NCBI GenBank assembly: GCA_031549585.1
Contig: JAVBPN010000223.1
Coordinates: 1-50,705 of the forward strand
Direction: 5' to 3'
Length of the DNA: 50,705 bases
Origin: Bacteroidales bacterium
GTDB lineage: Bacteria; Bacteroidota; Bacteroidia; Bacteroidales; UBA4181
The translations under genes and the position numbers were made by a program. Below the pieces are notes generated by a model. It saw only the letters and a list, made by a program, of their open reading frames with translations. It was not told where the DNA came from and searched no databases. Every line of letters starts with the position of its first letter. The first letter of the stretch is position 1. Shown in pieces: positions 21,391-49,335 of this stretch.

Positions 21391-21421
21391 AGTATATTGA
21401 TTTAAGGTTCAAGATTCAAAG

Positions 21422-23853: not shown

Positions 23854-23885
23854 ATCGTTCGATTTTTTAAATGAGAGATGAAAGA

Positions 23886-28876: not shown

Positions 28877-28929
28877 GACTTTTTTATTTACTTGACTTTG
28901 TATAAAAACAATGAGTGATCTTTTAGATA

Positions 28930-29099: not shown

Positions 29100-31454
29100 T
29101 TATTCCATTTTAATACTATTCATCGGATTGGCCGTTGCCGCTTTAACAGACTGAAAGCCAACCGTCAATAACGCAATAGCCAAACTAATCAACCCAACGA
29201 CAACAAAAATCCACCAAGGGATATTCGTACGATAAGAATAAGTACTTAACCATTTGTTCATCGCCCACCATGCAATGGGCGTAGCAATGGCAAAGGAGAT
29301 CAATACCAACACCAAAAATTCTCTGGAAAGTAAGGTGGTAATATTTTGTACAGACGCCCCAAGAACCTTACGAATGCCAATTTCTTTTTTGCGGGTTTCT
29401 GCCATGTAAGCTACCAGTGCAAATAAGCCCAAGCAAGAAATAAAAATGGTTAAACCGGCAAACCAGGTAGCCAATGATCCCATTTTTCGTTCTTCAGCAA
29501 ATTTATGGGCATATTCCTCATCCACAAATTTGTAATCGAAAGGATAAGCAGCATTGTATTGCTTTAATGCCTGTTCCACCTTAGCCAGATTATCCGCCAT
29601 ACGATTTTGTCCGTTCAATTTGATATGCATAATGCTCATCCACCCGCCGGGACCACCAATAAGCATAGGAACTACAGGTTCATAGGGTGAACGAAGGATA
29701 AAATCTTTAACCACACCCACCACATGCCAATCTTTGCCTTGTGTATTGACGATTTCGCCAATGGGATTCTCTAAATTCATCAATTTCAAAGCCGATTCAT
29801 TTAGCAACATAGCTGTAGAATCCGTTGGATAAGTATAAATATCAATATCCCGCCCTTCTACAATGGTTGTACCTGCTGTCTTTACCCAATCTGAATCCGT
29901 AAAATACAAGTCAAAAGTCAACCTTGCATTGGGGTCTTTTCCTTGCCAATTGACACCCCATGTGTTGCTCCATCCTTGCGACATAGGAGAAAGGGTTTTT
30001 GTCATAGATATGGCTGCTCCGGAGCTTAATAAATCTTGTTTGATGAGTTCATAATTTTTGACCATATCCCCTTCTAAAGAAACATAAATGAGTTGATCCT
30101 TATCATATCCGGATTCCCTGTTCTGCGCATATTTAATTTGGCGATGAATAACCAACGTAGATACAATCAAAGCGCAAGCAACGGTAAACTGTACCACTAC
30201 CAATATCTTTCGAGGCGACACCAATGCCTGTCCCGTTCTAAATATGCCTTTCAATGCCTTCACAGGAATAAAAGACGACAAATAGAAAGCCGGATAACTA
30301 CCGGCCAATAAACCGGTTAATAGGACAAAACCCAGTCCGGCCAACCAAAACCAACCATTGGCTAAACTTAAGGTTACATGTTGTCCCATCAATTTACCAA
30401 ATACCGGCAAAGCGAATATGGCAAGAATCAATGCGGCCACTCCGGCAATCAATGCGATGATGGTCGACTCACCCAGAAATTGCCAAATCAGCGACAAACG
30501 TTTACCGCCCATCACTTTCCGAACGCCCACTTCTTTTGCCCTTTTCTCACTACGAGCAGTACTCAAATTCATAAAATTGATACAAGCAATCAATAAAATC
30601 AATCCGGCAATGAGGCCAAACAAGCGTAATGACTCTATCAACCCTCCCGCAGGAACCCCATTTTCAAATTTGGCATATAGATGCCGCTTGCTGAGCGGGT
30701 ATAAAAACACTTCGACCGGTTCCTCATTATTGGTATGTGCTCGAGTAATATTACGAATGGATTCATTGACCAAATCCAATTGTGCATTGGGTTGTAATTC
30801 CACATAAGTTTGCAAGTTATTAGCAGTCCAACTATCGCTGGTCCAATCTAAAAGTTCCACAATAAACGGAATGGTGACTAATGCTTCGAACTGAAACAAG
30901 GTATTGCCGGGCAGGTCTTTCATCACGCCGGTGACCGTTACGGAACGCTGGTTATTGATCAAGAGTGTCTTACCCATTGGATCTTCATCACCGAACAAAC
31001 GTATAGCAACTTTTTCAGTCAAAACAACCGAATACGGATCATTCAATGCGGTTGTTGTATTCCCTTGTAATAAAGGAAAATCAAACATAGTTAAAAAATC
31101 AGGATCAGTGCAACTCGTTTGAATTTTAAACTTAGCATCTTCTTTGGCATAAAGCAAGGGTACATTCATTATTCTTGCTACTCCTGCCATTTCAGGATAA
31201 TCGGCTTTTAATGTTGGCGCCATAATCTTGGGCGTCCAATCCCAACAACGTACTGTGCCGTCAAACATAGAACGATTATATACCACATAGAGCTGTTTCT
31301 CCTTGGTATGAAAACGGTCATATGACCACTCGTAATGTATCCATGCAAGGATCAAAATAGTGGCTGCCATACCAATGGTTAAGCCTGCTATGTTGATGAA
31401 AGAATAAAATCCATTGCGCTTTAAACTCCGAAAAGTGGTTTTAATAAGATTCAT
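29100..31454 (-). CDS. ABC-transporter permease, double FtsX / MacB-like (subfamily III)
   Basis: 784 aa with an ATG start (MNLIKTTFRSLKRNGFYS). Same architecture and FtsX loops as its paralogues. Confidence 0.9.
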   Translation of the reverse strand: MNLIKTTFRSLKRNGFYSFINIAGLTIGMAATILILAWIHYEWSYDRFHTKEKQLYVVYNRSMFDGTVRCWDWTPKIMAPTLKADYPEMAGVARIMNVPLLYAKEDAKFKIQTSCTDPDFLTMFDFPLLQGNTTTALNDPYSVVLTEKVAIRLFGDEDPMGKTLLINNQRSVTVTGVMKDLPGNTLFQFEALVTIPFIVELLDWTSDSWTANNLQTYVELQPNAQLDLVNESIRNITRAHTNNEEPVEVFLYPLSKRHLYAKFENGVPAGGLIESLRLFGLIAGLILLIACINFMNLSTARSEKRAKEVGVRKVMGGKRLSLIWQFLGESTIIALIAGVAALILAIFALPVFGKLMGQHVTLSLANGWFWLAGLGFVLLTGLLAGSYPAFYLSSFIPVKALKGIFRTGQALVSPRKILVVVQFTVACALIVSTLVIHRQIKYAQNRESGYDKDQLIYVSLEGDMVKNYELIKQDLLSSGAAISMTKTLSPMSQGWSNTWGVNWQGKDPNARLTFDLYFTDSDWVKTAGTTIVEGRDIDIYTYPTDSTAMLLNESALKLMNLENPIGEIVNTQGKDWHVVGVVKDFILRSPYEPVVPMLIGGPGGWMSIMHIKLNGQNRMADNLAKVEQALKQYNAAYPFDYKFVDEEYAHKFAEERKMGSLATWFAGLTIFISCLGLFALVAYMAETRKKEIGIRKVLGASVQNITTLLSREFLVLVLISFAIATPIAWWAMNKWLSTYSYRTNIPWWIFVVVGLISLAIALLTVGFQSVKAATANPMNSIKME

Positions 31455-31824
31455 AATTTTAATATTTCAGATTTAAAATTTAAAGTTCCAAGTTATTTTA
31501 TACGTTCCCTTTAAACTTATTTCGTTTTAGTGATATCAATTTATAGCCCTAATGTTTGTAACCGTTGTTGCCAAATACGATCTTTTGATTTGACATATCC
31601 CCTACTCATTGGGAACAATACAGAAAATACTGACCTTTTGCCCAAGTGTATTTTCGATATGGTTGAAAAAGTATTCATGGCTTTATTTTTTACAATTCAT
31701 ACTGCACAATGAAAAACAATCGCCATGCCGCAATGATAAAATACTGTATTTGTGTGCTATACAAAATAATTTATCATGGGAAATGTTCGGCTATAGTACA
31801 TAAGTGTTAGTTTTCGGACAGTCA

Positions 31825-31911
31825 GAAGACCGTAAGACATGTAAAATAGTAAGACCGTAAGAGATTGTTGTTTTCTTACGGTCTTACGTGTCTTGCGATC
31901 TTACGGTCTTC
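31825..31911. repeat. Core-less hairpin form of the cassette, copy C (arms separated by an 11-nt loop)
   Basis: Sequence: GAAGACCGTAAGA-CATGTAAAATAG-TAAGACCGTAAGAG / attgttgtttt / CTTACGGTCTTA-CGTGTCTTGCGA-TCTTACGGTCTTC. It lies immediately 3' of the stop of 31914..34340. Confidence 0.9.
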
Positions 31912-31913
31912 TT

Positions 31914-34340
31914 CTACTCCGCTTTAATCGCTTTTACCGGATTGGCTGTTGCTGCTTTAATGGCCTGAAAACACACCGTAAACAATGTCAACACAACCGT
32001 AATAACAGCTGCTACGGCAAACATCCACCACGCAAGCGAAATGCGAAAAGCAAAACTTTCCAGGTATTTGCTGCCGAGCCACCAGGCTATGGGAACAGCA
32101 ATAACAAGGGAAATTAACAATAGCCGCAAATAATTATTGGTGAACAGGCTTATGATGCTGCTTACACTTGCTCCCAACACCTTGCGGATACCGATTTCTT
32201 TGGTGCGCTGCTCGGCCATAAACGCCGTCAACCCGAACACACCCATACAGGCTACCAATATAGCTAATACAGAAAAACTCACTGCCATACGATTGGTCTG
32301 TCTATCGGATTCATATGCCTTTTGCTGCAATAAAGAGGGGAAATAGACTTCAAATAAGTCGTTCGGAAAATGTTTCTTGAAAATAGCTTCATAAGAAGCA
32401 AGTTGTTGTGACATATTGCCCTCGTTGACACGCATCAGTAAAAATTCATTATCTGACCATGAATTATGAAAACAATACGGTTCGATAGGATTGTGCAAGT
32501 CCAAATAGTTAAAATCTTCCACTACACCGGCAACACGGGTATCACCACCGATGCCATACGCATAAATATTTTTTCCGATCATCTCCTCAGGTGTCATACC
32601 CAAAAACTCTGCGGCTTTCCGGTTAATCACGGCATACGAAACCGCATCACCGACTTTTCTTTCCGTGTATATGGCGCCTGCGATCAGTTTCAGATGCAGC
32701 ATTTCCACGATTTCTGGAGTAGCATACGATGTACACAAGTCGGCAACCTGATCCGGTGCCGGTTGTTTTCCGTTACGTCGTTCCTGCATTACTTCATGGC
32801 TTTTAAAAAAGGTGTTGGAAGGCCCTCGAAACAACGGAAATGCCGAAGTAAATGCCACAGCCGACACATTACTTTGTGCGGCAAAATCGTTCTTCAATGC
32901 GGTAAAATCATTTTGCGATGATACTCCCGACAAAGGTACGGCCACAACACCGGTTACATCGTAACCAAGATCCTTATCGGTAACATAATTCATTTGACTG
33001 CCGATGACGAATACCCATGTAATCAAAACTACGGAAACAGAAAACTGAACGACGGAAAGCCCCTTACGAACCACGGCATGACGTCCTCCTTTTGTATATC
33101 CCTGCCGAATAATGGTTAACGGAGCAAAGCCCGACAGGTATAATGCCGGATAGGAGGCTGCAAAAAAAACGGTTACCAGATATACGGACAGTAGTCCCAA
33201 CAGAAAAGTAGGATAAAGAAAAATACCCGGAGGTATTTGTTGTCCCAATAATTTGTTAAAAATAGGCAATAGGATGAAGGAAAGTACAAATGCTGCTGCA
33301 AAAGCAATAAATGTAACCATGCCGGTTTCGATGTACAACCTGCCGACGATATTACCGCGCCGTGCACCGAAAGTTTTGCTAACACCAATATCTTTTGAGC
33401 GTTTTTGCGCACGGGCAGTCGACAAGTTCATGTAGTTGATGCACGCCACCACCAGTATGATTGCGGCCAACAACGAAAGCATCTTTAACCTGTTGATATC
33501 TCCGGGAGCGTGAATATAAGTATATCCTACAGAATACAGGTGTATTTTTTCAAACAATTGTAATTGTACCCGGAAAAAACCATCAGGCCCATTATTCTTT
33601 TCCAATATTTGCTGCATTTGTTCTTCTGCTTGGCCGGCATCAACACCATCGGCCAATAGGCAAAATGTTTCGAACCCTATATTCCCCCAATGATAAGAAC
33701 CTTTGTCGCGCGGGGTAATGGGAAGATGCGACGACATAAATGGCCCAATGATGCTGTAGTCAGCAAATGAAGAATTGGCAGGAAAATCCTTGTAAACAGC
33801 CTGCACTGTCATTTCGTTCTTTCCGTCGACCAATATGGTTTCACCTATAGGATTCCTATCATCGAACAGTATCCGCGACTTTGATTCAGACAACGCCACA
33901 CTGCCCGGTTTCAACAATGCTGTTTCGGACGAACCGTACACAAAAGGTGTATTAAAAATCCGGAAAAAATCCTCGTCAGCCCAACAAAATTTATCCATTT
34001 TGAAAAAATTACCGGATACTTTTACAACAGCCGGATTAACAAAAGTCCTTGTTACATAAGCGACTTCGGACACCTCTTCTTGCACGGCCGGTGCAAATGG
34101 ATTGACGGTTAAGCCATAAACCTCTCCACCATATTTTTCGGTAGATACCGAATTCATTCGGTAGATACGACTTCCGTTCGGGAACGATTTGTCAAATGAA
34201 TACTCATTGTAAATCATAGCACAAATGATCAATACAACGGTCAATCCCACAGATAAACCAATAAGATTAACCAAAGAGAACACACCATCGCGACGAAGAC
34301 TACGCCAGGCAAATTTTAAGTAATAAGAAAAATTGTTCAT
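31914..34340 (-). CDS. ABC-transporter permease, double FtsX / MacB-like (divergent subfamily I)
   Basis: 808 aa with an ATG start. LKFAWRSLRRDGVFSLVNLIGLSVG at the N-terminus. FtsX loops: NLSTARAQKRSKDIGVSKTFGARR and EQRTKEIGIRKVLGAS. The C-terminus is NPVKAIKAE. Confidence 0.9.
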   Translation of the reverse strand: MNNFSYYLKFAWRSLRRDGVFSLVNLIGLSVGLTVVLIICAMIYNEYSFDKSFPNGSRIYRMNSVSTEKYGGEVYGLTVNPFAPAVQEEVSEVAYVTRTFVNPAVVKVSGNFFKMDKFCWADEDFFRIFNTPFVYGSSETALLKPGSVALSESKSRILFDDRNPIGETILVDGKNEMTVQAVYKDFPANSSFADYSIIGPFMSSHLPITPRDKGSYHWGNIGFETFCLLADGVDAGQAEEQMQQILEKNNGPDGFFRVQLQLFEKIHLYSVGYTYIHAPGDINRLKMLSLLAAIILVVACINYMNLSTARAQKRSKDIGVSKTFGARRGNIVGRLYIETGMVTFIAFAAAFVLSFILLPIFNKLLGQQIPPGIFLYPTFLLGLLSVYLVTVFFAASYPALYLSGFAPLTIIRQGYTKGGRHAVVRKGLSVVQFSVSVVLITWVFVIGSQMNYVTDKDLGYDVTGVVAVPLSGVSSQNDFTALKNDFAAQSNVSAVAFTSAFPLFRGPSNTFFKSHEVMQERRNGKQPAPDQVADLCTSYATPEIVEMLHLKLIAGAIYTERKVGDAVSYAVINRKAAEFLGMTPEEMIGKNIYAYGIGGDTRVAGVVEDFNYLDLHNPIEPYCFHNSWSDNEFLLMRVNEGNMSQQLASYEAIFKKHFPNDLFEVYFPSLLQQKAYESDRQTNRMAVSFSVLAILVACMGVFGLTAFMAEQRTKEIGIRKVLGASVSSIISLFTNNYLRLLLISLVIAVPIAWWLGSKYLESFAFRISLAWWMFAVAAVITVVLTLFTVCFQAIKAATANPVKAIKAE

Positions 34341-36718: not shown

Positions 36719-36769
36719 AATTTATGTGTTTTAATAGTGTTTCTATGATGATGAGTAATCTTTTAGATA

Positions 36770-37042
36770 GACCGTAAGACATGTAAGATGGTAAGACCGT
36801 AAGAGGTTGGGATGCTAACGGAATTGACTATATATTTGTGTTTATCCGGCATCTGGTTTATGATTGTATTTATTTGACAAGATCAAATTCTTTCATTTTT
36901 CTTACGGTCTTACGTGTCTTGCGATCTTACGGTCTTTTTTATTTTGTTGATTCAACATACGATCTATGATTGTATTTATTTGACAAGATCAAATTCTTTT
37001 ATTTTTCCTACGGTCTTACGTGTCTTGCGATCTTACGGTCTT
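36770..37042. repeat. Cassette copy D with a duplicated distal core and R arm (L 36770-36806; R1 36901-36936; R2 37007-37042)
   Basis: The ~106-bp segment ending in R1 is repeated directly after it. The core piece TGATTGTATTTATTTGACAAGATCAAATTCTTT occurs twice. R2 has one mismatch (CCTACGG). Confidence 0.9.
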
Positions 37043-37043
37043 T

Positions 37044-39404
37044 TTATTCCGCTTTAATCGCTTTCACCGGATTGGCCGTTGCCGCCTTGATGGCTTGAAA
37101 AGAAACGGTCAACAAAGCAATGGATAAACTGACGCATCCGACAACTATAAATATCCACCAGGGAATATTGGTATGATAAGCATATTTGGCCAACCATTTA
37201 TTCATTGCCCACCATGCAATGGGAGAAGCAACCGCAAGGGAAATGAGCACCAGGATTAAAAATTCTTTGGATAATAAAGACGTAACACTGGTCACTGAAG
37301 CTCCCAAAACCTTGCGGATACCGATCTCCTTTTTGCGTGTTTCGGCCATATAGGCAACCAAAGCAAATAATCCCATGCAGGAAATCACAATGGCTAAGAT
37401 AGCAAATCCGGTAGCCAATGAACCCATTTTTTGTTCTTCCTGAAATTTATGGGCATATTCTTCATCGATGAATTTATATTCGAACGGATAGGCCGGATTG
37501 TATTGCCTGAAAATCTTTTCGGCCGCAGCCAAATTATCTGCTGTCTTATTTTCACCATTTAACCGGATATGAATCGTTCCAAAACTGCCGATGCCGGGCC
37601 CTCCGATAATCATCGGCATCATTGGGTTGTATGGTGAACGGAGGATAAAATCCTTGACTACGCCGATTACATGCCCTTCCCTACCCCAAAGCCGGACAGT
37701 TTCTCCAATAGGATGATCCAGATTCATTGCTTTGAGGGCTGATTCATTCAGTAAAACTGCCGTAGCATCGGTTGGATAGGTGTAAATATCTATATCTCTT
37801 CCTTCAACAATGGTCGTCCCCACTGTTCCCGTCCAATCGGCATCCACAAAGAATAGGTCAAACAATGTTTTGTCATCGGGAAGAATACCTTTCCATTGAA
37901 CGCCCAAAGCGCTTGAATTACAATCCGTCATCGGCGAATTGGTTCTTGTCACCGATATGGCCGTCCCGGAAGCCAATAAATCCTGTTTAATCAATGCGTA
38001 ATTTTTGGCGATATCACCATTTATTTCCTGGTAAATAAGCTGTTCCTTATTGTATCCGCTGTCCCTGTCTTGTACATAATATATTTGCCGGTGAATGACA
38101 AGGGTTGCAATAATCAAACAAATAGCAACAGTAAATTGCACTACTACCAATACTTTACGGGGTGAAACCACTTTCCATGCAGCTTTGAATGTTCCTTTCA
38201 ACACCTTGACCGGCAAAAAAGACGATAGGTGAAAAGCAGGATAGCTACCGGCAAGCAGGCCGGTAAAAAATACAAACACCAGCCCAGTCAACCAGAACCA
38301 AACACTCCCTAGATTTAAGCTCAATGTTTTACCCATTAATGTACTATAAGCCGGTAGAACCAATGTCGCAATAACAATAGCAAGCAATCCGGCCAGAAAA
38401 GCCACGATGGTTGATTCACCCAAAAATTGACTGATCAAGGAAATCCGTTTCGCACCCATCACTTTGCGCACTCCTACTTCTTTTGCTCTTTTTGCACTTC
38501 GGGCCGTGCTCAGGTTCATAAAATTAATACAGGCTATCAGCAATATCAACAAGGCAATCAATCCAAACAACTGCAAAGTATCAACCAATCCTCCGGCAGG
38601 CACTCCATTTTCAAATTTGGAATATAAATGCACCCGGCTTAACGGATAGATGAATGCCTCAAACGGCACTTCATTGTTGGAGTGTTCTTTGATAATATTC
38701 TGAATGGATTGATCGATGCCACTTTCTTGGGAAGGCGACTGAAGTTCAATATAAGTAGATACCGAAAAAGCACCCCAAGAATCATTATGCTTGTACCAAT
38801 CATGACTTTCTGCAAAAGTAAATGGGAGCAAGACGTCAAATTCGAATGATGTATTGCGTGGCAAATCTTTCATGACACCGGTAACGGTCATCGAATATTG
38901 AGCATCGCATAACAACACTTTCCCCATCGGATCTTCAGAACCAAATAAACGTTGAGCGGCTTGCTCGGTAAGGATTACCGAATACGGATCTTTCAATGCA
39001 GATTCCATATTTCCTTGCAACAAAGGAAAGCTGAACATAGTAAGGAATCCCGGATCGACACACGTAGTTTTCATTTTCAAACGGTTCTCGCCTAATGTAT
39101 ACAGCATGCTTCTCGTATCCATCCGCGTCATTTCTTCTACTTCCGGATAGTCAGCTTTTAAGGTAGGCCCCATCACCACCGGATTTTCACCCCAGCACTC
39201 CACTTTGCCGTTAAATTCACCACGGCTCCAAACCTGATATAATTGTTTTTCTTTAGCATGAAAACGGTCATATGACCACTCGTTATAAACCCAAACCAAT
39301 AAAAGGATGGCGGCAGCCATGCCAATGGCAAGGCCGGAAATATTGATGACGGAATAAAATCCGTTCCGTTTCAAACTTCTGAAAACAACTTTAAAGAAAT
39401 TCAT
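37044..39404 (-). CDS. ABC-transporter permease, double FtsX / MacB-like (subfamily III)
   Basis: 786 aa with an ATG start (MNFFKVVFRSLKRNGFYSVINISGLAIGMAAAILL). Same architecture as its paralogues. Confidence 0.9.
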   Translation of the reverse strand: MNFFKVVFRSLKRNGFYSVINISGLAIGMAAAILLLVWVYNEWSYDRFHAKEKQLYQVWSRGEFNGKVECWGENPVVMGPTLKADYPEVEEMTRMDTRSMLYTLGENRLKMKTTCVDPGFLTMFSFPLLQGNMESALKDPYSVILTEQAAQRLFGSEDPMGKVLLCDAQYSMTVTGVMKDLPRNTSFEFDVLLPFTFAESHDWYKHNDSWGAFSVSTYIELQSPSQESGIDQSIQNIIKEHSNNEVPFEAFIYPLSRVHLYSKFENGVPAGGLVDTLQLFGLIALLILLIACINFMNLSTARSAKRAKEVGVRKVMGAKRISLISQFLGESTIVAFLAGLLAIVIATLVLPAYSTLMGKTLSLNLGSVWFWLTGLVFVFFTGLLAGSYPAFHLSSFLPVKVLKGTFKAAWKVVSPRKVLVVVQFTVAICLIIATLVIHRQIYYVQDRDSGYNKEQLIYQEINGDIAKNYALIKQDLLASGTAISVTRTNSPMTDCNSSALGVQWKGILPDDKTLFDLFFVDADWTGTVGTTIVEGRDIDIYTYPTDATAVLLNESALKAMNLDHPIGETVRLWGREGHVIGVVKDFILRSPYNPMMPMIIGGPGIGSFGTIHIRLNGENKTADNLAAAEKIFRQYNPAYPFEYKFIDEEYAHKFQEEQKMGSLATGFAILAIVISCMGLFALVAYMAETRKKEIGIRKVLGASVTSVTSLLSKEFLILVLISLAVASPIAWWAMNKWLAKYAYHTNIPWWIFIVVGCVSLSIALLTVSFQAIKAATANPVKAIKAE

Positions 39405-39637
39405 GATTGAAATATTTCAGGTTTAAAATTTAAAGTTTCTGGTTGTTTTATACGTTCTTTTTAAACTTATTTCGTTTTAGTGGTATCAATGCTTTATTTT
39501 TTTACAATTTACACTACACAATGACAAACAATCAACGTGCCGTAATGCTAACATGCTATATTTATGCGCAATACAAAATAATTTATCTTGAAAAAATGTT
39601 CGGATATAGTACATAAGTGTCCGTTTTCGAACAGTGG

Positions 39638-39717
39638 GAAGATCGTAAGACCATAAGACACGTAAGACCGTAAGATGCTGTCGTTTCCTTACGATCTTAC
39701 CATTTACACGTCTCGAC
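39638..39717. repeat. Degenerate core-less hairpin, copy E, with arm centres in the opposite arrangement to copy C
   Basis: Sequence: GAAGATCGTAAGA-CCATAAGACACG-TAAGACCGTAAGA / tgctgtcgtttc / CTTACGATCTTAC-CATTTACACGTCTCGAC. The first arm matches the reverse complement of the R arm (34/38 by hand). The second arm matches the reverse complement of the L arm. Confidence 0.75.
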
Positions 39718-40095
39718 TTTTGAGATAGCCTCTTTTTAAAACAATTTTTTGATACTATTATGAAAAATAAAATATACTTTGTTTATAAACTACTGCAGTT
39801 TGTAAACTCAATAGTTTATCCAGAATTCATATTATTAATAAATAATGTAAATCAAAAGGCGAACTTATTGTTACATACTCTATAATTCCGAAAATTCATA
39901 CAACCGGCATATAACTCCTATGATTCATACCTAATTAATCGTCCTTATATCTATAAACATGTGAATTCTTCGGATTCTTATCCTAAGCTTACGTCAAGTG
40001 ATAAATTTTATATACTCATCACTCATCGTTTATAACTCATCACTATTTATTTGCTTTTTTGTTGATGATTATTAAAAAAAATCAGAATTTTATTT

Positions 40096-40103
40096 TATTT
40101 TTG
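40096..40103 (+). promoter_or_regulatory. Possible Bacteroidetes -7 box upstream of 40157..40633
   Basis: TATTTTTG matches TAnnTTTG, 54 nt upstream of the ATG. No well-spaced -33 TTTG was found. Confidence 0.3.
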
Positions 40104-40156
40104 CTTCGCCTGTTGCATACAGGATAACATTATTATTCATTTAAAAAATTAACATT

Positions 40157-40633
40157 ATGGAAAACAGACATTCTCAGGCTGTCCCCGAAGACATCATCAA
40201 CCAGGTGAAAAGCCGCCTGTCGGAAGCAAAAAAACTTCTTGAACCTTATTGCCCGACGCTTACCGTAGAGCAGCGCAAGTCACTTCCCAAAATGAGCGAC
40301 GGAACCCTTGCATTCGGCGAAAAATCGCTAGAACATGCCATCAACCATCCCGAATTCCTGCCTTCGCACATCAGCTTGGATGATTGGAAGATCGACATGG
40401 CCGATGTGAATAACCTCAAGCAGGTGATGGTACTGGTTGGCGATATCAACCAAATGGTGGACGATACCCGCATGACAGCCGGTAATGAAGCCTATTTTGC
40501 TGGTCGCGGCTATTATCACAATGTGCAACGAGCATCTGGCGACGGCGTTCAGGGTGCCTTACCTATTCAAAAAGACCTGGCTACCCAGTTTGCAAACCGC
40601 AGGCCTTTGTCGGCCAACAAAAAAGCGGAGTAA
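40157..40633 (+). CDS. Conserved hypothetical protein (no domain I can name)
   Basis: 158 aa with an ATG start. It is the only plus-strand gene in the right 35 kb. It has non-repetitive, coding-like composition and is followed by a good intrinsic-terminator hairpin. The sequence resembles a helical Bacteroidetes hypothetical family (…LTVEQRKSLPKMSDGTLAF…DDTRMTAGNEAYF…), recalled from memory only. Confidence 0.55.
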   Translation: MENRHSQAVPEDIINQVKSRLSEAKKLLEPYCPTLTVEQRKSLPKMSDGTLAFGEKSLEHAINHPEFLPSHISLDDWKIDMADVNNLKQVMVLVGDINQMVDDTRMTAGNEAYFAGRGYYHNVQRASGDGVQGALPIQKDLATQFANRRPLSANKKAE

Positions 40634-40657
40634 GTCCGGAATTTGACCAACAAGTAC

Positions 40658-40692
40658 AAGCGGGGAACTATGTTTTCCGCTTTTGCTTTTTT
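40658..40692 (+). terminator. Intrinsic terminator candidate for 40157..40633
   Basis: AAGCGGGGAA-ctatg-TTTTCCGCTT gives a 10-bp stem including two G-U pairs. It is followed by TTGCTTTTTT and begins 25 nt after the stop codon. Confidence 0.6.
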
Positions 40693-40942
40693 CCGGGAAG
40701 ACATACCCCGGAGGTGGGCTGTCAAAAATTCATATATTGATAAAAATACGTTCGTCCCATTTTTCATATCCATCGGTGGTGAGTATGTTCGGCGGCATTT
40801 GTAATGCCGTCGCTCAACATTGTCGAACCTTTAGCTCGCCGCAGGCAATTTAAAATTCGACGAAGATAAAAAGCGGCAATACAACTTAGCAAAGCGATCT
40901 CACCGTAAGGTAATTGCCGCTTAGCGAAGTGCGGTACAGAGA

Positions 40943-41189
40943 GACATACCCCGGAGGTATGTTGACATACCTTTTTGTTATGTAGACATCCCACCATAGC
41001 ATGTCTACATGACTCCAAACTATGTTGACATACCTTTTTTGCTACATCGACATCATACCATACCATCTCGACATGGCTCCGAACTATGTTGACATACCTT
41101 TTTGCTATGTCGACATCATATCATACCATCTTGACATAGCTCTGAACCATGTTGACATACCTTTTTGCCGTGTCGAGATACCTTATTGG
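40943..41189. repeat. Phased 21-bp direct-repeat array (12 GACAT-type cores), also readable as ~3.6 units of 63-64 bp from 40959
   Basis: GACAT cores start at 40943, 40964, 40985, 41006 (TACAT), 41027, 41049, 41070, 41091, 41112, 41133, 41154 and 41175 (GAGAT). Spacing is 21 bp, with one 22-bp step. The motif context is ATGT(T/C)GACAT. The 63-64-bp units start at 40959, 41022, 41086 and 41149. Confidence 0.9.
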
Positions 41190-41202
41190 ATATTATTCAA
41201 TA

Positions 41203-41415
41203 GACCGTAAGACATGTAAGATGGTAAGATCGTAAGAGGTTGTGATACTTACATGTATTGATGATATATTTTGTTTATTCAATATATAATCTATAATTGT
41301 ATTTGTTTGGTAAAATCAAACTTCTTCTTTTTCTTACGGTCTTACGTGTCTTACGGTCTTACGGTCTTCTTTCATTTTCTTACGGTCTTACGTGTCTTGC
41401 GATCTTACGGTCTTC
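41203..41415. repeat. Cassette copy F with an extra variant R arm (L 41203-41239; R' 41333-41369; R 41379-41415)
   Basis: The L arm has 1 mismatch. R' is CTTACGGTCTTACGTGTCTTACGGTCTTACGGTCTTC, in which the CTTGCGAT unit is replaced by CTTACGGT. R is canonical and abuts the stop of 41416..43782. Confidence 0.9.
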
Positions 41416-43782
41416 TCATTCCGTTTTGATACTATTCACCGGGTTGCTACTTGCCACGCGCCAATTCTGGAACGTCACCGTACCGGCCGTAATTGCGGCT
41501 ATAACGACAAAAGCCAATAAATAAACCCACCAGTATACCGGTGTTTTGTATGCGAAATTCTCCAACCAGCGATTAACGGCATACCATGCAAGCGGGACTG
41601 CCACAACAAAGCAGATTACCAATATCTTAAAATACGCCTTGTTGAACATGACGATGATGCCAATGACAGATGCCCCCAGCACTTTGCGGATGCCGATTTC
41701 TTTCCGGCGGCATTCGCTGTCGAACACCACTAATCCGAATACACCGACAACGGCTATGAAGATGGCAATGAGGCTAAACAATGAAATCAATGAACTCAGC
41801 GAAGATTCCTTTTCATACAACCGTTGCAATACTTCATCAAAAAAACGGACTTCAAACGGGTAATTCGCATCAAACCAGGCAAGTGTTGAGCGAATATGCG
41901 ACATCCCCGCATGCAGATTAGTTCCTGCCTTTAGTTTAATATAAGCAAAATTAGGTTGTCGTCCCCAGTTCTCGGTTCCAAATACATAAAATGCCATCGG
42001 TTCAACCGCCATGCGGAAAGAGGCAAATTTAATATCGGGCATAAATCCGATAATTTCACCGTCATTACCACCGCCACCTCCTATTGATGTGTTCAGCTCC
42101 AGGCCGAATTGCTCCCGTGCAGCTTCATTAAATATGTACGCGCCATGTTGCGTATGGGTATCTTCTTGCCTGAAATCGCGGCCCTCAGTAATCTTGATGT
42201 CCATCACTTTCAGAAACGAGTAATGCACGGGAAAGACCTGGTACATAATATCATCACCTTTATATTCCTTCCCCCAACTCATATACGCGTCGGAACTCGA
42301 CAACAGGAATTGTCCGTAAGTAACATCCTCAACCCCCGAATACGATTTCAATTGATCGGTAAATGCTTCGCGACTTTTTTGTATCTGACCGATATCGGCA
42401 GTAATTAAAGCGGCTTTGTCGTAACCCAAAGACGAATTTTGCATGAACCGGTTTTGCAGGTACATGAAGGATGCACCGATAATCAGCGCAAAAGAAGCGA
42501 TAAACTGGATGCCGATCAATGTATTGCGCAAACTTTTCCCTTTGGGCGACAGCCCGAAGTTTCCCTTCAATACCAACGCCGGGGCAAATGAAGTGATGTA
42601 ACGCGCCGGATATAAGCCCGCAAACAAACCGGTGAGCAATGCCACCAAAGCCGTTCCACCGGCAATCAACAGATGAGCCGCAAGCGACAAATCGGCGTCT
42701 GTCAACTTTGCCAACGGACTGCTATTGAACAACAAAACGAACAAAATAGCGACAAGATATGACAGTAGGCTGATGGCAACCGCTTCGAAAACAAGCGCAA
42801 AACGCAAGATGCTTTGCCTTGCTCCCAATACGCGTTGCGTGTTGATATTTTTGATACGCATGGGCGTCAACGCCGTGCTGAAATTGGTAAAATTGATAGC
42901 CGCTATGGCGATTAGCACAATGGCAATGGCAAACAAAATCATCAATGTCTGCCGGCTTGCTTTGGGTACGAAATCAAATTGTACATCCGTTACGAAATGA
43001 AGTTCCGGAAGAGCTGTAAGCCGCAAGCTGACACCCGATTCCTCCCAATTGAAATTTTTACCAAAAGATGATTCAGGGAGATTGAAATTCCGCTTGAAGT
43101 TATCGAATAACAAAGGCGCCTGAGATGCGTCGTTGACCCGGATATAGGTAAGGTAATTAAAATTCCCCCAGTTATCCTTATTTTCCTTTTCAGGGATAGG
43201 AGCATATATGCTATTATTGACGATGGTATTTGCAGGAAAATCGCGATATACCGCTCCTACCGTTTGGCTTCCCCGGTCGCTGACAAGCTGTTTGCCCACA
43301 GCCGACTCTTTTCCGAATATTTTGTGCGCCAGACTCAGCGGGAGAATTACCTTTTCGGGCGTTGTAAGGGCATCCTCCGTTCCTTCCACAAAATCAAATG
43401 TAAACACATCGGCAAATCCGGGTGATACCGACATTCCTTTTTCCTTGTAGAAATTCCGCACACCATCCTTCTCCACATGGAAAAAAACATCTTCATTCGC
43501 GGGGTTGCTGAACGCACCACTGACAATATAAGGCGACGATTCAAAGAAACGCTCGGCAATGGGACGGCTAAGAACTGCCCATATATTATCTTTTTGAATT
43601 AATTCCACACGAAAAATCTGATCGTGGCCTTGATGGAATTTGTCAAAACCGTTATCATAATCCAGTTGGATCATGATGACCATAAATGCTGCAAAAGCAA
43701 CCGAAAGGCCTAATATATTCAGGATTGTCGCCATCTTAAAACGGCGGATGACACTTAAAAGGTTACGCAAAACAGGTTTCAT
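41416..43782 (-). CDS. ABC-transporter permease, double FtsX / MacB-like (subfamily IV, most divergent)
   Basis: 788 aa with an ATG start (MKPVLRNLLSVIRRFKMATILNILGLSVAF). FtsX-type loops: TQRVLGARQ and ECRRKEIGIRKVLGAS. The C-terminus is NPVNSIKTE. It appears GC-richer than its neighbours by eye. Confidence 0.88.
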   Translation of the reverse strand: MKPVLRNLLSVIRRFKMATILNILGLSVAFAAFMVIMIQLDYDNGFDKFHQGHDQIFRVELIQKDNIWAVLSRPIAERFFESSPYIVSGAFSNPANEDVFFHVEKDGVRNFYKEKGMSVSPGFADVFTFDFVEGTEDALTTPEKVILPLSLAHKIFGKESAVGKQLVSDRGSQTVGAVYRDFPANTIVNNSIYAPIPEKENKDNWGNFNYLTYIRVNDASQAPLLFDNFKRNFNLPESSFGKNFNWEESGVSLRLTALPELHFVTDVQFDFVPKASRQTLMILFAIAIVLIAIAAINFTNFSTALTPMRIKNINTQRVLGARQSILRFALVFEAVAISLLSYLVAILFVLLFNSSPLAKLTDADLSLAAHLLIAGGTALVALLTGLFAGLYPARYITSFAPALVLKGNFGLSPKGKSLRNTLIGIQFIASFALIIGASFMYLQNRFMQNSSLGYDKAALITADIGQIQKSREAFTDQLKSYSGVEDVTYGQFLLSSSDAYMSWGKEYKGDDIMYQVFPVHYSFLKVMDIKITEGRDFRQEDTHTQHGAYIFNEAAREQFGLELNTSIGGGGGNDGEIIGFMPDIKFASFRMAVEPMAFYVFGTENWGRQPNFAYIKLKAGTNLHAGMSHIRSTLAWFDANYPFEVRFFDEVLQRLYEKESSLSSLISLFSLIAIFIAVVGVFGLVVFDSECRRKEIGIRKVLGASVIGIIVMFNKAYFKILVICFVVAVPLAWYAVNRWLENFAYKTPVYWWVYLLAFVVIAAITAGTVTFQNWRVASSNPVNSIKTE

Positions 43783-43861
43783 GACATTATTTTATTTACT
43801 TGACTTTTGAATAACAGATGATGTAACAAAGAGCGATGAATTATGAGTGATCTTTTAGATA

Positions 43862-44033
43862 GACCGTAAGACATGTAAGATGGTAAGACCGTAAGAGGTT
43901 GCGACACTTACATGTATTGGCGCTATATTTTGTTTATTCGACGCCATATCTAGTCTATGGTTACATCTATTTGACAAAAATTAAATTTTATCATTTTCTT
44001 ACGGTCTTACGTGTCTTGCGATCTTACGGTCTT
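43862..44033. repeat. Inverted-repeat intergenic cassette, copy G (L 43862-43898; R 43998-44033)
   Basis: Arms are identical to copy A and the core is homologous. It lies between subfamily IV and subfamily III genes. Confidence 0.95.
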
Positions 44034-44035
44034 TC

Positions 44036-46408
44036 TTATTCCGTTTTAATCGCCTTTACCGGATTAGACGTGGCTACTTTGACTGTTTGAAAACCAACCG
44101 TAAGTATGGCGATGAGCAGAATAAGCACACCGACCGCCATAATCAGCCATACGGTTATGTTCGTACGATAGGGAAATATCATCAACAATTGATTCATCAT
44201 GAACCAGGCCAAAGGTGCGGCAATAACAAAAGCAATGCCCGTCAGCACCAAATATTCCCTGGAAATCAGCAATGAGATGTTGGCTATCGAAGCGCCTAAT
44301 ACTTTACGGATGCCAACTTCTTTTTTACGCCGTTCGGCTGTAAGGGCGGCCAATGCAAACATACCCATGCATGAGATCAGGATAGTAATGATGGTAAAGA
44401 AATCTGCCAGCGATTTGATTGGTTTTACCATAGCGAAATGCGTAGCAACGTATTCTTCGTCTATAAACCTGTAATCGAACGGATGGGCGGGGTTGTATTT
44501 TCTATAAATACTTTCTACTGAAGATAGTTTGTCGGCCGTTTTGCCGGGGCTTAACCGGATATGCACCGTGGTGCGCTCAACCACTTTTTCGTTGCAACCG
44601 ACAACCAAAGGATGGATATTTTCGAACGGATGAAGTACTAAATCCTTGATTACTCCCGCCACCTGGCCCTCTTGGCCCCAAAAAGAAATCGTCTCTCCGA
44701 TGGGATTTTCGAATCCGATGATTTTCACAGCCGTTTCGTTGAGCAAGAAGGCCGTGGAGTCTGCAGGCCGGGTTGCCGGGTCGGGATAACGCCCCGCAAC
44801 GAGTTCTACACCCATCATTTCCGCCCAATTACCATCCGCAAAATAATAATCGAAGAATTGTTGGGCATCGGGATCTTTACCTTGCCATTTTATGCCATCA
44901 GTTAGTGACCCAAACGTCGACATGGGCGCATTTGTTTTTGTTACATCCGTTACCGCGCCCGATGCCATCAAATCGTTCCGGAAAGCCGGATAATGTTTCC
45001 TGATTTCATCCGTAAGCGAAATACGGATTAAATTTTCGTTATCCCATCCCATCTGGCGGTCTTGCGCATAAACGATTTGTTTGCGCAGTGTCAAGGCGCC
45101 AATAATTAAAATCACAGTAACGAAGAATTGAAATACCACCAATGTTTTGCGTAGCGTAATGCGGCCACCGAAGTGAACATCGCCTTTTAATACCTTGACA
45201 GGACGAAATCCTGACAGATAGAAGGCCGGATAGCAACCGGCCAATAGCCCTGTGAAAAGAATGAACCCCACAGCAAATACCCAAAAATGCCTGTCGAAAA
45301 TATCCAAAGACAATACTTTTCCGCTAAATCCGCTCAACCATTCCGAAAAATAGGGCAACGCCATATAAATCAAAAGAAATGCAATAACGCCCGAAACAGA
45401 AGCCAACACAATCGATTCCCTTAGAAAATGCCCGATAAGCCCAATACGCCTGCCGCCCATCACTTTACGCACTCCCACTTCCTTAGCCCGCAACGTTGCC
45501 CTGGCCGTGCTGAGGTTCACAAAATTAATGCAGGCAATAAGCAGAATAACACTTGCCAGAATGGTAAATATGCGCAGGAAAGTGATCAGCCCCCTCGAGG
45601 GAACACCGTTTTCAAAATCCCTATACAGATGTGATTTGTACGACGGAAACAGAAATGTTTCCCTTTGCGCCCGCTGCTCGGTATGATTTTTAATGATGTC
45701 ACAGATAGAAGCATTCAACCGGGCTAATGGTACATGAGGGGCTACTTCCACATATGTCTCAACCATATTGACCCACCACGACGTTGTATTCCAGTTATGC
45801 ACTTTTTCTACGAATTGAATCGAGCCGACTATTTCGAAGTCAAAACGGGTGTTGTTGGGCAAGTCTTTCATGATTCCCATCACTGTCACCGGATATTTTG
45901 CATCGCACATGATGGTTTTCCCCATCGGATCTTCATCACCGAAAATTCGCCGGGCAGCCTTTTCGGTCAGGATAATGGAATACGGGTCGTTGAGCGCCGT
46001 ACGTATATCTCCCTGCAACAACGGAAAATCAAACATGGTGAGAAAGGAAGGATCGGTATGCAGGGTACGCATACTTATATGCCTTTCGCCTTCACCGAAA
46101 TAATAAATGCCACCCCTCGAGACACGTGCCGATTCGACAATTTCCGGATATTCGTCTTCCAGGGCGGGGCCGATCACTAATGAAGTGTAGTTGGTATATG
46201 AATCCTGTCCGTTATATGTCGCCTTATTCCACACCATGTATATTTGTTCGGCTTTGGTATGGAAACGATCGGACGACCATTGATTATACACCCATATCAG
46301 CAAAAGTGCGGAAGCAGCCATGCCGATGGCCAATCCGCCGATGTTGATGATAGAATAGAACTTGTCGCGGCGCAGATTGCGCAAAAAGATTTTAAGATGA
46401 TAGAACAT
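44036..46408 (-). CDS. ABC-transporter permease, double FtsX / MacB-like (subfamily III-like)
   Basis: The listed ORF (to 46492) reads through the repeat arm. ATG at 46408 gives MFYHLKIFLRNLRRDKFYSIINIGGLAIGMAASALL. FtsX loops: NLSTARATLRAKEVGVRKVMGGRR and ERRKKEVGIRKVLGAS. Confidence 0.88.
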   Translation of the reverse strand: MFYHLKIFLRNLRRDKFYSIINIGGLAIGMAASALLLIWVYNQWSSDRFHTKAEQIYMVWNKATYNGQDSYTNYTSLVIGPALEDEYPEIVESARVSRGGIYYFGEGERHISMRTLHTDPSFLTMFDFPLLQGDIRTALNDPYSIILTEKAARRIFGDEDPMGKTIMCDAKYPVTVMGIMKDLPNNTRFDFEIVGSIQFVEKVHNWNTTSWWVNMVETYVEVAPHVPLARLNASICDIIKNHTEQRAQRETFLFPSYKSHLYRDFENGVPSRGLITFLRIFTILASVILLIACINFVNLSTARATLRAKEVGVRKVMGGRRIGLIGHFLRESIVLASVSGVIAFLLIYMALPYFSEWLSGFSGKVLSLDIFDRHFWVFAVGFILFTGLLAGCYPAFYLSGFRPVKVLKGDVHFGGRITLRKTLVVFQFFVTVILIIGALTLRKQIVYAQDRQMGWDNENLIRISLTDEIRKHYPAFRNDLMASGAVTDVTKTNAPMSTFGSLTDGIKWQGKDPDAQQFFDYYFADGNWAEMMGVELVAGRYPDPATRPADSTAFLLNETAVKIIGFENPIGETISFWGQEGQVAGVIKDLVLHPFENIHPLVVGCNEKVVERTTVHIRLSPGKTADKLSSVESIYRKYNPAHPFDYRFIDEEYVATHFAMVKPIKSLADFFTIITILISCMGMFALAALTAERRKKEVGIRKVLGASIANISLLISREYLVLTGIAFVIAAPLAWFMMNQLLMIFPYRTNITVWLIMAVGVLILLIAILTVGFQTVKVATSNPVKAIKTE

Positions 46409-46447
46409 AGGGCAATGTGTGTTAAGTGATGAGTAATCTTTTAGATA

Positions 46448-46613
46448 GACCGTAAGACATGTAAGATGGTAAGACCGTAAGAGGTCGCGCACTTACATGT
46501 ATTGATGCTATATTTGGTTTATTCGACATTTAATCTATGATTGTACTTATTTGGTAAAATCGAACTCTTTCATTTTTCTTACGGTCTTACGTGTCTTGCG
46601 ATTTTACGGTCTT
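46448..46613. repeat. Inverted-repeat intergenic cassette, copy H (L 46448-46484; R 46578-46613)
   Basis: The L arm is identical to copy A. The R arm has one mismatch (GATTTTACGG). The core contains an exact TATATTTG at 46509-46516 on the plus strand. Confidence 0.95.
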
Positions 46614-46615
46614 TT

Positions 46616-48970
46616 TTATTCTGTTTTTAACGATTTCACCGGATTAGACGTCGCTGCTTTTATCGCTTGCCAGCCAATCGTAATCAAAGTCAACGCCAAC
46701 GTGATCACTGCTGCAATAACAAATACCGTCCAGGTAATGCTGATACGATAGGCAAAGTCCTGCAACATCTGATTTAACCAATAATACGCCAATGGGAAAG
46801 CAATCAGCCCGGCAATAACCACCAATATGAAAAATTCTTTTGAAAGCAAGATCACGATATTTGGCACACTGGCGCCAAGCACCTTACGAATGCCAATCTC
46901 TTTCGTCTTCGTTTCGGCAGTATAAGTCACCAAACCAAAAAGCCCAAGGCAAGAAATAAAGATGGCAATAACGGCAAAGATGGTGAACAGCTTTCCGGTA
47001 CGGATATCTGCCTTATATACCTGATCAAAATGATCATCCAAAAAATTGTATTTGAATTCGTAGTCGGCATTATATTCCTTCCACACTTTTTCGACAGCAG
47101 CAATGGCTTGCTTCGCTTGCCCGGGAGCCGTTTTGACATATAAGGATGATTCCCATTCCAAGCCACAGTTGATCACCAGAGGTTTAATCTCCGAATGCAA
47201 ATTTTGAAAATTAAAGTCTTTGATCACACCTACGATTTCGGTATCGCCACCATTGAAAGACAACGGCATCCCAATCACAGAAGCCCCTTCACCCATCAAC
47301 TTTGCTGCCGTTTCATTTACAATAGTTCCTCTTTGCATCATTTCTCCGGATGATCGAAAATATGTTCCTTCTACAAGGGGAATATCCATGAATGAAAGAA
47401 AGCTGGAATCAACCATAGCCCAAGCAAAAGAAGGCGATTGATCGTTTTTATCGCGCCAGACGTCTGCCCTGCTCGACTCACAGATCATTTTATTGAACAT
47501 CGATGCCGATGTGGCAATAATAGCCGGTTCGGAAGATAATCGTTCCATCATCACCCGGAAATGTGAACCCGATGAACCCGGCAAGTTAACTGTCAGTATA
47601 TTTTCCTTCTCATATCCCGGATTCATGTGCTGCATGTATTTTAGTTGTGATGCAATCACAATGGTAGCAACAATCAACGCTGCGGAAAAAGAAAACTGGC
47701 ATATAACCAAAGCTTTCCGGAACAATGCTTTGCTTTTTCCCTGTGCCCCTATTCCAAAAGCGTCGACCGGACGAAACGAAGCCAACGTAAATGCCGGGTA
47801 TAATCCGGCCAACAATAAAGTAACCGCTCCGACAGACAAATATATGAGTGCTGTTGATCGTTCAAATAAGGTGAAATGCATGTTTTTCCCTGCAAGGTCA
47901 TTGTAGAATGGAAGCAATACATAAATAAGCGCTGTAGCCAATATAACCGCCACAACCAACATGACTGCCGTTTCTCCCATCAGTTGCCCGAATAACCTTT
48001 TTTTACCTGCCCCTACAATTTTACGGACGCCAATTTCACGGCTGCGTTTGCTCGCCCGGGCAGTCACCAGATTGACATGATTGATGCAGGCAATGATTAA
48101 AATCAAAACCGCTATGACAGAAAATATATAAATGTTTTTGAGGCCTGCCGGTTGTCCGGACAAATTATACAAATGCATTTCATACAAAGGTTGTAGCCTG
48201 TATCCAAGGTCGACCGTATTTATTTTTTTCTCAGCCATCATCCCTGCAATTGTTTCCGGATTACTGCCAATAGCCAATTTAAAATAGGTTTGAAAACTAA
48301 AATTCCCCCAATCCTCTTCAATCAATTTCCATGGTCCATTTCCTCCGAATGTCCGTTGTTGCACATCAAACCGCACAAGCACATCCGGCCGGATGGAAGA
48401 ATTTTCAGGAATATCCTTTATCACCCCGGTTACCTGTAAAGAAAAATCATGAGGTGTCTTCAGCATTTTTCCAATGGGATCTTCATTTCCGAAAAACGCT
48501 TTTGCCTTAGACTCAGAAATGATAGCAGATAAATCGTCCGGGAAAGGCTCGCGCAAGTCACCCCTAAGCAAAGTAAAATCAAACATACGAAAGAACGAAG
48601 TATCTACAGCCAATATGGAAAGATCACGGAATTTGGTATTCTCGTAGTCCAGATAACTACACTGATAGTTGTAGGTCCCAATCCGGCAATATTCTTCGAT
48701 TTGAGCGATATCATTCTGCAAAAATGAAGCCATGGGAGCCGATGATGTGGGCCAATAACCGTCATTCCCTTTTATCGAAGTTAAAACCTTATATATACGG
48801 TCTCCATCTTTGTGAAGCCGGTCATAACTCAATTCATCCTTTACCCAAAGCGAGATCAGGATACAAACAGTCAAACTTACAGCCAAGCCGCCAATATTAA
48901 TGACCGAATACAAGCCATTGCGGCGAAGGTTGCGCAAGGCGATTTTCATGTAATACAAAAAATTATTCAT
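46616..48970 (-). CDS. ABC-transporter permease, double FtsX / MacB-like (subfamily II)
   Basis: 784 aa with an ATG start (MNNFLYYMKIALRNLRRNGLYSVINIGGLAVSL). FtsX loops: KRSREIGVRKIVGAGK and ETKTKEIGIRKVLGAS. Confidence 0.9.
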   Translation of the reverse strand: MNNFLYYMKIALRNLRRNGLYSVINIGGLAVSLTVCILISLWVKDELSYDRLHKDGDRIYKVLTSIKGNDGYWPTSSAPMASFLQNDIAQIEEYCRIGTYNYQCSYLDYENTKFRDLSILAVDTSFFRMFDFTLLRGDLREPFPDDLSAIISESKAKAFFGNEDPIGKMLKTPHDFSLQVTGVIKDIPENSSIRPDVLVRFDVQQRTFGGNGPWKLIEEDWGNFSFQTYFKLAIGSNPETIAGMMAEKKINTVDLGYRLQPLYEMHLYNLSGQPAGLKNIYIFSVIAVLILIIACINHVNLVTARASKRSREIGVRKIVGAGKKRLFGQLMGETAVMLVVAVILATALIYVLLPFYNDLAGKNMHFTLFERSTALIYLSVGAVTLLLAGLYPAFTLASFRPVDAFGIGAQGKSKALFRKALVICQFSFSAALIVATIVIASQLKYMQHMNPGYEKENILTVNLPGSSGSHFRVMMERLSSEPAIIATSASMFNKMICESSRADVWRDKNDQSPSFAWAMVDSSFLSFMDIPLVEGTYFRSSGEMMQRGTIVNETAAKLMGEGASVIGMPLSFNGGDTEIVGVIKDFNFQNLHSEIKPLVINCGLEWESSLYVKTAPGQAKQAIAAVEKVWKEYNADYEFKYNFLDDHFDQVYKADIRTGKLFTIFAVIAIFISCLGLFGLVTYTAETKTKEIGIRKVLGASVPNIVILLSKEFFILVVIAGLIAFPLAYYWLNQMLQDFAYRISITWTVFVIAAVITLALTLITIGWQAIKAATSNPVKSLKTE

Positions 48971-49119: not shown

Positions 49120-49299
49120 TTCATCTTTAACTTTTGAATTTCTTTAGGCATACTTTCCGACAATCATTTAATTTTATCTCTGTCAAAGAGCACAACCACA
49201 GACAAAAAATTCCTCTCCGACAGTAATCGATGGATCCTGTCAGCGGAGGAATGCTTCATATTTCGGTTGATCACTTTGATCATAGGCTATTTATCTCTT

Positions 49300-49335
49300 C
49301 TTACGGTCTTACATGTCTTGCGATCTTACGGTCTT
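49300..49335. repeat. Solo R arm of the cassette (no partner L arm)
   Basis: CTTACGGTCTTACATGTCTTGCGATCTTACGGTCTT lies 2 nt from the stop of 49338..50705. The 48971-49299 interval contains no L arm or cassette core. Confidence 0.85.

Follow-up and report, generated by a model that had tools for sequence, protein, structure and literature searches.

Several described systems resemble the hairpins reported here. The REP and BIME elements of Proteobacteria are multi-copy imperfect extragenic palindromes that occur in either orientation and can form 3' RNA hairpins, and REPs lie close to the stop codon of the gene before them or provide it (PMC3733652). Some Bacteroidetes carry intergenic direct repeats of the heptamer TAACTGA, which hold stops in all three frames, have an orientation relative to the genes and mostly sit directly upstream of start codons, not in hairpins (PMC4679880). 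Plastid DNA offers well-documented cases of hairpin-associated small inversions, 4-50 bp in length (PMC12371153), those in its non-coding part since Kelchner and Wendel 1996 (reviewed in PMC12371153). They are recurrent and need no dedicated enzyme. We compare with these systems a set of hairpins made of TAAGA units in a 50,705-nt stretch of Bacteroidales DNA, hereafter the window, and in particular two copies, C and E, whose arms differ in polarity.

From 16.5 kb to its end the window holds 13 paralogs of a ~790-aa MacB_PCD/FtsX permease in a same-strand (-) array. Their pairwise identity ranges from 27% to 87%, and they match the ADOP (duplicated-permease) family model with scores below the NCBIfam curated cut-off. 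The nearest external homologs are MAG proteins labelled Tannerella and metagenome proteins, the best being 66% identical; for two of the permeases (29100-31454 and 37044-39404) no record was found elsewhere. The sole public DNA run with the window sequence is an invertebrate gut metagenome with contigs at ~6x depth, in which related elements of other organisms overwhelm the signals at the repeats. A Pfam scan of 16 larger window ORFs, including 5 of the 13 permease paralogs, showed permeases, efflux and other genes and no recombinase among the ORFs scanned across the 50.7 kb.

The tandem permease paralogs are separated by hairpins composed of TAAGA units that are spaced by 3 or 4 nt. The 12-mer AAGACCGTAAGA occurs 55 times in the window with up to 2 mismatches, compared to 2.6 expected, and these matches group into nine elements in addition to E. 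Every such element begins 0-3 nt past a stop codon of a gene coded on the - strand. On that strand the stop-proximal arm reads AAGA CCG TAAGA TCG CAAGA CACG TAAGA CCG TAAGA and the second arm TCTTA CGG TCTTA CCA TCTTA CATG TCTTA CGG TCT. A core of ~95 nt separates the arms in six copies, while C has the same arms around an 11-nt loop. In five of the six cored copies the next ATG is ~50 nt beyond the second arm; the sixth (41201-41368) faces not a gene but the unrelated stretch upstream of E.

Cored copies in the canonical orientation are found directly after the stop codons of genes 24056-26407 (copy at 23884-24052, with 37-nt arms and a 95-nt core) and 29100-31454 (28928-29096), and after those of genes 44036-46492 (43860-44033) and 46616-48970 (46446-46613). 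The copy at 36768-36936 is followed in tandem by a partial duplicate of its stop-proximal arm and half the core (36937-37042), the whole (36768-37042) lying after the stop of gene 37044-39404. Similarly, the copy at 41201-41368, which has a variant right arm with spacers CCG, CCG, CACG, CCG, carries an extra stop-proximal arm (41378-41414), and this compound element (41201-41414) follows the stop of gene 41416-43782. The tandem partial duplications at 36937-37042 and 41369-41414 are consistent with slippage or unequal exchange between repeats. A lone stop-proximal arm with no partner (49299-49335, - strand) lies after the stop of gene 49338-50699.

The two arms of a window copy are not exact complements of each other. 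Read in the TAAGA sense, one arm has spacer lengths of 3-4-3-3 (CCG, CATG, TGG, CCG), which we call A-type, and the other 3-3-4-3 (CCG, TCG, CACG, CCG), which we call B-type. This stagger gives each copy a polarity, and all six cored copies as well as C, thus seven intact copies, share one orientation. In every canonical copy the + (antisense) strand folds better. The cored copies are 97-98% identical in their arms, 75% in their cores and 54-57% in the flanking gene ends. Arms so much more alike than their flanks point to either constraint or homogenisation by conversion, acting on the arms together with their asymmetry.

The cores (23921-24015, 28965-29059, 36805-36899, 41238-41331, 43897-43996 and 46483-46576) are better conserved in the half beside the stop-proximal arm, where a small stem is found (ATTTGA..TCAAAT, in one copy GTTTG..CAAAC). 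The possibility that the core encodes a peptide was dropped, as the reading frame differs between copies. Neither the core nor the leaders described below have a BLAST match in any other locus fetched, and the leader pattern has none in JGI metagenomes.

Two further observations concern the gene starts in this array. ORFs 21475-23898, 26528-28975 and 44036-46492 appear 20-35 codons too long because an arm in the TCTTA orientation has no stop in any frame, so that the ORF reads back through it (e.g. ..LTVLPSYMSYGL..); the true starts probably lie further downstream, at ATGs such as MNLIKTTFRSLK. The gaps between the first permease genes (16457-16523, 18918-19002 and 21391-21474) are occupied by another repeat, AT-rich and with a period of ~8 nt (TTTAAAGTTTCAAATTTAAGATTTCAGG..), which also lies at the start-proximal ends of the leaders of C and E (31461-31490 and 39406-39439) and recurs directly upstream of other start codons.

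C (31825-31911) is an intact short-loop hairpin directly after the stop of gene 31914-34340 (-). Its left arm (31825-31862) is A-type with spacers CCG, CATG, TAG, CCG and is followed by the loop (31863-31873) and the right arm (31874-31911). Two pairs of perfect 14-nt inverted repeats are nested in it, an outer pair (31824-31837 and 31899-31912) and an inner pair (31849-31862 and 31874-31887). As RNA, C folds with -50.5 kcal/mol on the + strand and -44.3 on the - strand, with a z-score of about -11.

C adjoins the leader (31455-31824, - strand) of permease gene 29100-31454, and E adjoins the leader (39405-39637, - strand) of permease gene 37044-39404. As the sequence-only reading held, these leaders are homologous: positions 31461-31540 and 39411-39490 are 90% identical and positions 31680-31822 and 39491-39635 are 83% identical, the C leader having a 139-nt insertion (31541-31679) relative to that of E. 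The homology stops 2 nt short of each hairpin, and the junction is kept to the base. The genes behind the leaders are less similar (69% nt and 66% aa identity) than the leaders themselves, which may be constrained or recently converted. The exact Bacteroidetes -7 promoter box (TAnnTTTG) occurs in neither leader, nor did inspection by eye reveal one in the cores.

Relative to the shared leader, the arms of E have a polarity opposite to that of C and of every other copy in the window. Arm 1 of E (39638-39675, + strand) has five TAAGA units with spacers TCG, CCA, CACG, CCG, that is, lengths of 3-3-4-3 (B-type), and is similar to the canonical right arm when the latter is reverse-complemented. Arm 2 (39687-39717, + strand) is degenerate and reads CCTTA CGA TCTTA CCA TTTA CACG TCTCGAC; its reverse complement has spacers CGTG, TGG, TCG and is A-type, like the canonical left arm. 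Between them the loop TGCTGTCGTTT (39676-39686) is T-rich on the + strand, as is that of C. The claim that the arms of E are swapped relative to C had been made by eye, and formal pairwise alignment in both orientations bears it out, with the features lying and reading as described; the outcome named beforehand as a refutation, arms of E that fit C better in direct orientation, was not obtained. The whole element scores 58 against C when reverse-complemented and 43 directly (96 versus 88 with flanks included). Arm 1 matches the reverse complement of C arm 2 at 34 of 38 positions with no gap, compared to 32 of 38 for a gapped match to C arm 1, and arm 2 matches the reverse complement of C arm 1 at 25 of 31 positions, compared to 22 of 31 for C arm 2. 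The 12-nt arm centres score +6.0 and +5.5 when flipped and +0.5 and -4.0 directly. Consistent with this, the better-folding strand of E is the - strand, opposite to the canonical copies.

The loop behaves differently. Compared by eye, the 11-nt loops of E and C agree at 7 of 11 positions directly and at 2 of 11 when flipped, and with three flanking bases on each side at 13 of 17 compared to 4 of 17. The sequence-only reading had noted this direct, T-rich loop as a caveat while proposing one inversion of the segment between the repeats GAAGACCGTAAGA and TCTTACGGTCTTC. A single inversion of this kind accounts for the opposite arm polarity and leaves the direct loop unexplained. Nor does E have the intact outer-right repeat that was assumed: TCTCGAC is found there, and the outer-left repeat carries a C>T change.

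We estimated how often such a pattern would arise with no exchange of arms. The arms of C were mutated in direct orientation with 17-35% substitution and 2-6% indels, in 3000 replicates at each of three levels, and the observed flipped-minus-direct score of +14 was reached in 0 of 3000 replicates at every level. A looser null drew arms at random from the TAAGA family in other genomes. Here the preference of E arm 1 for the B-type reference is matched by 17% of the arms, and that of E arm 2 for the A-type by 6-8%; against this null the polarity pattern of E is only moderately unusual. The E arms are also no closer to the window reference arms than many unrelated family arms are. One further character is shared by the two copies: at a unit that reads TAAGA in every other copy, the left arm of C has TAAAA and the right arm of E (reverse complement) TAAA. 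This hints weakly at shared descent, two independent changes being equally parsimonious.

The degeneracy of E, the other caveat of the sequence-only reading, is evident. Besides the loss of the outer-right repeat, one unit is short of a base (TTTA), and the C>T change in the outer-left repeat makes it perfectly complementary to the inner-right repeat of E itself. E folds with -23.5 kcal/mol (z -2.2), compared to -50.5 (z -11) for C. Upstream of E the array is broken by ~1.5 kb of unrelated DNA (39718-41200); the right flanks of E and C are unrelated, and no permease remnant was found upstream of E by tblastn with all paralogs (best E-value 0.035). E is a decayed orphan copy whose upstream gene has been lost.

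The unrelated stretch contains a lone gene of 158 aa (40157-40633) with no Pfam or NCBIfam match, which interrupts the - strand permease array on the + strand and has a canonical terminator beyond it (40658-40692). Further on, 3.5 copies of a 63-nt tandem repeat (40958-41176) are made of 21-nt sub-repeats, each with a palindrome of the ATGTnGACAT type; ORF 40764-41066, which runs across this repeat, is probably spurious. Word depth around the repeat reaches several hundred in metagenome and metatranscriptome contigs, with a peak bin at 40542-40908, and is about 220 across the array itself, suggesting that related sequences are abundant in that community. The idea of E as an assembly artefact was rejected. 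A Logan contig of run X1, independently built, probably from the same reads, spans 37696-40186 with zero differences, and the longest perfect inverted repeat in E is just 11-12 nt, too short to confuse an assembler; mis-assembly is therefore unlikely.

The window hairpins belong to a larger family. Diverse Bacteroidota genomes contain the motif GACCGTAAGA-N12-TAAGACCGTAAGA in 37 stretches, and 117 metagenome contigs carry it as well. Carriers include a Chitinophagaceae isolate and MAGs of termite-gut Bacteroidales, Tannerella, Culturomica, Dysgonamonadaceae, Cytophagaceae and Sphingobacteriales; Danxiaibacter flavus is a cultured carrier. Fourteen loci (15 stretches) match a strict motif in one MAG, and among viral contigs there is only one match to the repeat. 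Rfam gave no match at gathering score for the whole window and none at E<=1 for 23700-50705, and a literature search for the repeat sequence found no paper. Arrays of at least four further units occur alone and as hairpins; an inverted array often follows the first, which allows the DNA or RNA to fold into a long hairpin. Nearly all hairpins have the TAAGA arm 5' and the TCTTA arm 3' with loops of mostly 8-20 nt; L026 may be an exception to this order. The staggered design of A- and B-type arms is also seen in L017, L025, L030 and L037. C and E had been singled out as core-less, which they are, and it is the cored copies that are peculiar: hairpins in other genomes usually have no core, the 95-nt core being a peculiarity of the window.

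Across the family, as in the window, the arrays tend to follow stop codons, beginning in sense orientation at the stop or no more than ~13 nt from it. Of the 185 arrays with enough upstream sequence, 100 follow a long sense ORF with its stop within 40 nt of the array start. The stop-to-array offsets have one peak at 0 (18 cases), where the TAA of the stop is that of the first unit, and another between -13 and -1. For comparison, a convergent ORF ends at the far end of the array in just 31 of 196 cases. In related permease arrays from other metagenomes the post-stop position is filled by different repeats, at 2338-2549, 4881-5116, 9834-10006 and 14717-14836 of L038 and at 1735-1829, 7180-7304 and 9615-10006 of L039. 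These are of three kinds, a G/C-rich inverted repeat with a core, octamer arrays of the TGAATAAC type that contain TAACTGA, and octamer hairpins of TGCCAATA. The post-stop slot is conserved, and the repeat family that occupies it is interchangeable.

Other loci show family hairpins in both orientations beside homologous genes. In MAG EPI_MAG_00218, the 3' ends of a paralogous gene at loci L030 and L037 are 93% identical over 223 nt, and the hairpins of the two loci are 92% identical over 85 nt in inverted orientation only, the loop included. A third paralog, L032, combines the loop orientation of L037 with the arm type of L030, so that arm and loop polarity are decoupled there too, as between C and E. 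Both pairs, C/E and L030/L037, have one homologous flank; a clean flip with both flanks homologous was not found among the loci compared. At an orthologous locus with both flanks ~80% identical (L017, L106, L043, L136, L155 and L126), unit number, spacers and loops vary freely. A fixed coupling of arm type with loop polarity was considered and dropped, as the commonest combination accounts for just 9 of 36 hairpins, and most or all of these nine are window copies.

We think it somewhat probable that the arm centres of E were exchanged by means of its own nested repeats, as a past accident in a decaying copy and not as a programmed switch. E and C are paralogous copies of one hairpin repeat, each duplicated together with the adjoining leader and permease gene, and recombination between the nested 13-bp inverted repeats would then have exchanged the two 12-nt arm centres of E. 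Inversion at the outer repeats would also turn the loop; the loop being direct, at least two events are needed. Two routes would fit. Two hairpin-associated small inversions may have occurred in succession, at the outer pair and then at the inner pair. Alternatively, both arms of E may have been converted from another copy in inverted register, a conversion that would leave out the non-homologous loop or core and that is possible since any two arms have the 12-mer in common in either orientation. We infer that nested small inversions would be the most economical mechanism. Either route would have to be read from a single locus at which the leader flank is the only anchor. As a fossil of arm recombination, the earlier description of E, the copy fits in its polarity; it does not make recombination a property of the element, as it would record one historical event in a decayed copy.

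The exchange has to be weighed against gain, loss and conversion of the 8-9-nt units by replication slippage with no inversion, by which a handful of unit-level indels in a C-like ancestor would have given the spacer pattern of E (3-3-4-3 and 4-3-3) and so mimic a swap. Unit turnover in this family is real: the free variation of unit number, spacer order and loop at the orthologous locus, with its two ~80% identical flanks, indicates that gain and loss of units can shift the 4-nt spacer without inversion. The many arm-type combinations of hairpins in other genomes point the same way, as do the fractions of random family arms that share the type preferences of the two E arms. E itself is not heavily remodelled, however, having kept the unit count and loop of C; turnover would require four indels, a +1 and a compensating -1 spacer change in each arm, beside a neighbour that is 83% identical, and point mutation with indels never gave the pattern in the simulation. 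Since unit count and loop are kept and arm 1 aligns gap-free when flipped, we still favour a true exchange over turnover, by a margin that is not large, and regard turnover as a serious but less likely rival. It is rather improbable that a REP- or MITE-like mobile palindrome landed independently beside the two leaders in opposite orientations. The family is indeed dispersed and multi-copy within genomes, as the MAG with 14 loci illustrates, homology between paralogous loci often stops at the hairpin, and a Bacteroidetes-specific TnpA-REP subclass (2.6) with flanking 'atypical secondary structures' has been described (PMC6006769). Against insertion, the leader junction is identical to the base, target-site duplications are absent, no Y1-transposase motif occurs in any fetched locus, and the loop has the same polarity in C and E, which oppositely oriented insertions would not produce.

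A programmed inversion, in which the nested repeats serve as recombinase sites and the hairpin or the cored copies switch neighbouring permease genes, would make sense of inverted repeats that bracket a short segment, of arms far more conserved than their surroundings and of the existence of flipped copies (E, and L030 versus L037). We nevertheless judge it highly improbable given the lack of a recombinase among the scanned ORFs of the 50.7-kb window, the single orientation of the seven intact copies, the lack of an exact TAnnTTTG box in either leader and the decay of E. Moreover, flippable segments of 11-61 bp are probably too short for ordinary synapsis.

If the arm centres of E were exchanged as we favour, E indicates that small palindromic repeats of gut Bacteroidales undergo minute inversions as plastid hairpins do, and that nested repeats can leave a signature of swapped arms and unswapped loop that may be mistaken for a switch. 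The finding on C and E is itself modest; the repeat family without an Rfam match that stands behind it is of more interest. As to function, the hairpin most likely acts as a REP-like 3' RNA hairpin that ends or protects the upstream transcript, and the stop-codon-hugging TAAGA family is a candidate 3'-end signal in Bacteroidota, a phylum with unusual translation and termination signals. Strand-specific folding was dropped as evidence for a function in RNA, family-wide folding showing no clear strand bias. An intrinsic (Rho-independent) terminator was rejected: C, E and the cored copies lack a T-tract behind the stem on both strands, and they are absent from the terminator scan. The repeats also probably serve as a substrate on which large families of permease genes are amplified in tandem. 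We speculate, with considerable doubt, that TAAGA-unit hairpins are an undescribed phylum-wide post-stop-codon class in which arm centres and loop flip independently and repeatedly and which supplies breakpoints for arrays. Were this true, flips would change the strand on which the better hairpin forms, and gene arrays would be duplicated and reshuffled with these repeats as breakpoints, possibly with a dedicated single-strand DNA enzyme.

How do these hairpins compare with the known systems? Like the TAACTGA heptamers they are short tandem intergenic units carrying stop codons, and they differ in the sequence of the unit. Integron attC sites are likewise imperfect palindromes after each stop codon in a same-direction array, with unpaired bases that give strand polarity. 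In contrast, the units here read GTAAGAC with no GTTRRRY / RYYYAAC core sites, the arms are unit repeats, no integron integrase is found among the scanned ORFs and the genes, being paralogs, have a tandem-duplication history of their own; the lack of the GTTRRRY core and of an integrase led us to reject the hairpin as an attC site. Bacteroides invertons come from the same phylum and have inverted repeats around a short segment beside surface or transport genes. Here the segments are much shorter and contain no recognisable promoter, and the scanned ORFs include no recombinase.

The hairpins come closer to REP/BIME elements. They are imperfect, extragenic and multi-copy, with nine copies in the window and many loci per genome elsewhere. 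Their host, however, is Bacteroidota, and the arms in the window are tandem 8-9-nt TAAGA units, while a REP is a single palindrome of 20-40 nt. The GT[AG]G or CGTC tetranucleotide at the foot of REP stems is absent, the stems beginning with GAAGACCG or TAGACCG. No RAYT gene was found near TAAGA hairpins, and a six-frame search for the HUH and Y..NP motifs of Y1 (HuH) transposases gave none in the window or the fetched loci. With the plastid small inversions, E shares a short segment between short inverted repeats that is reverse-complemented, relative to a conserved flank, between homologous loci. It differs in its bacterial host and in belonging to a multi-copy element family, and also in that its repeats are nested, so that the arm centres and the loop can flip separately.
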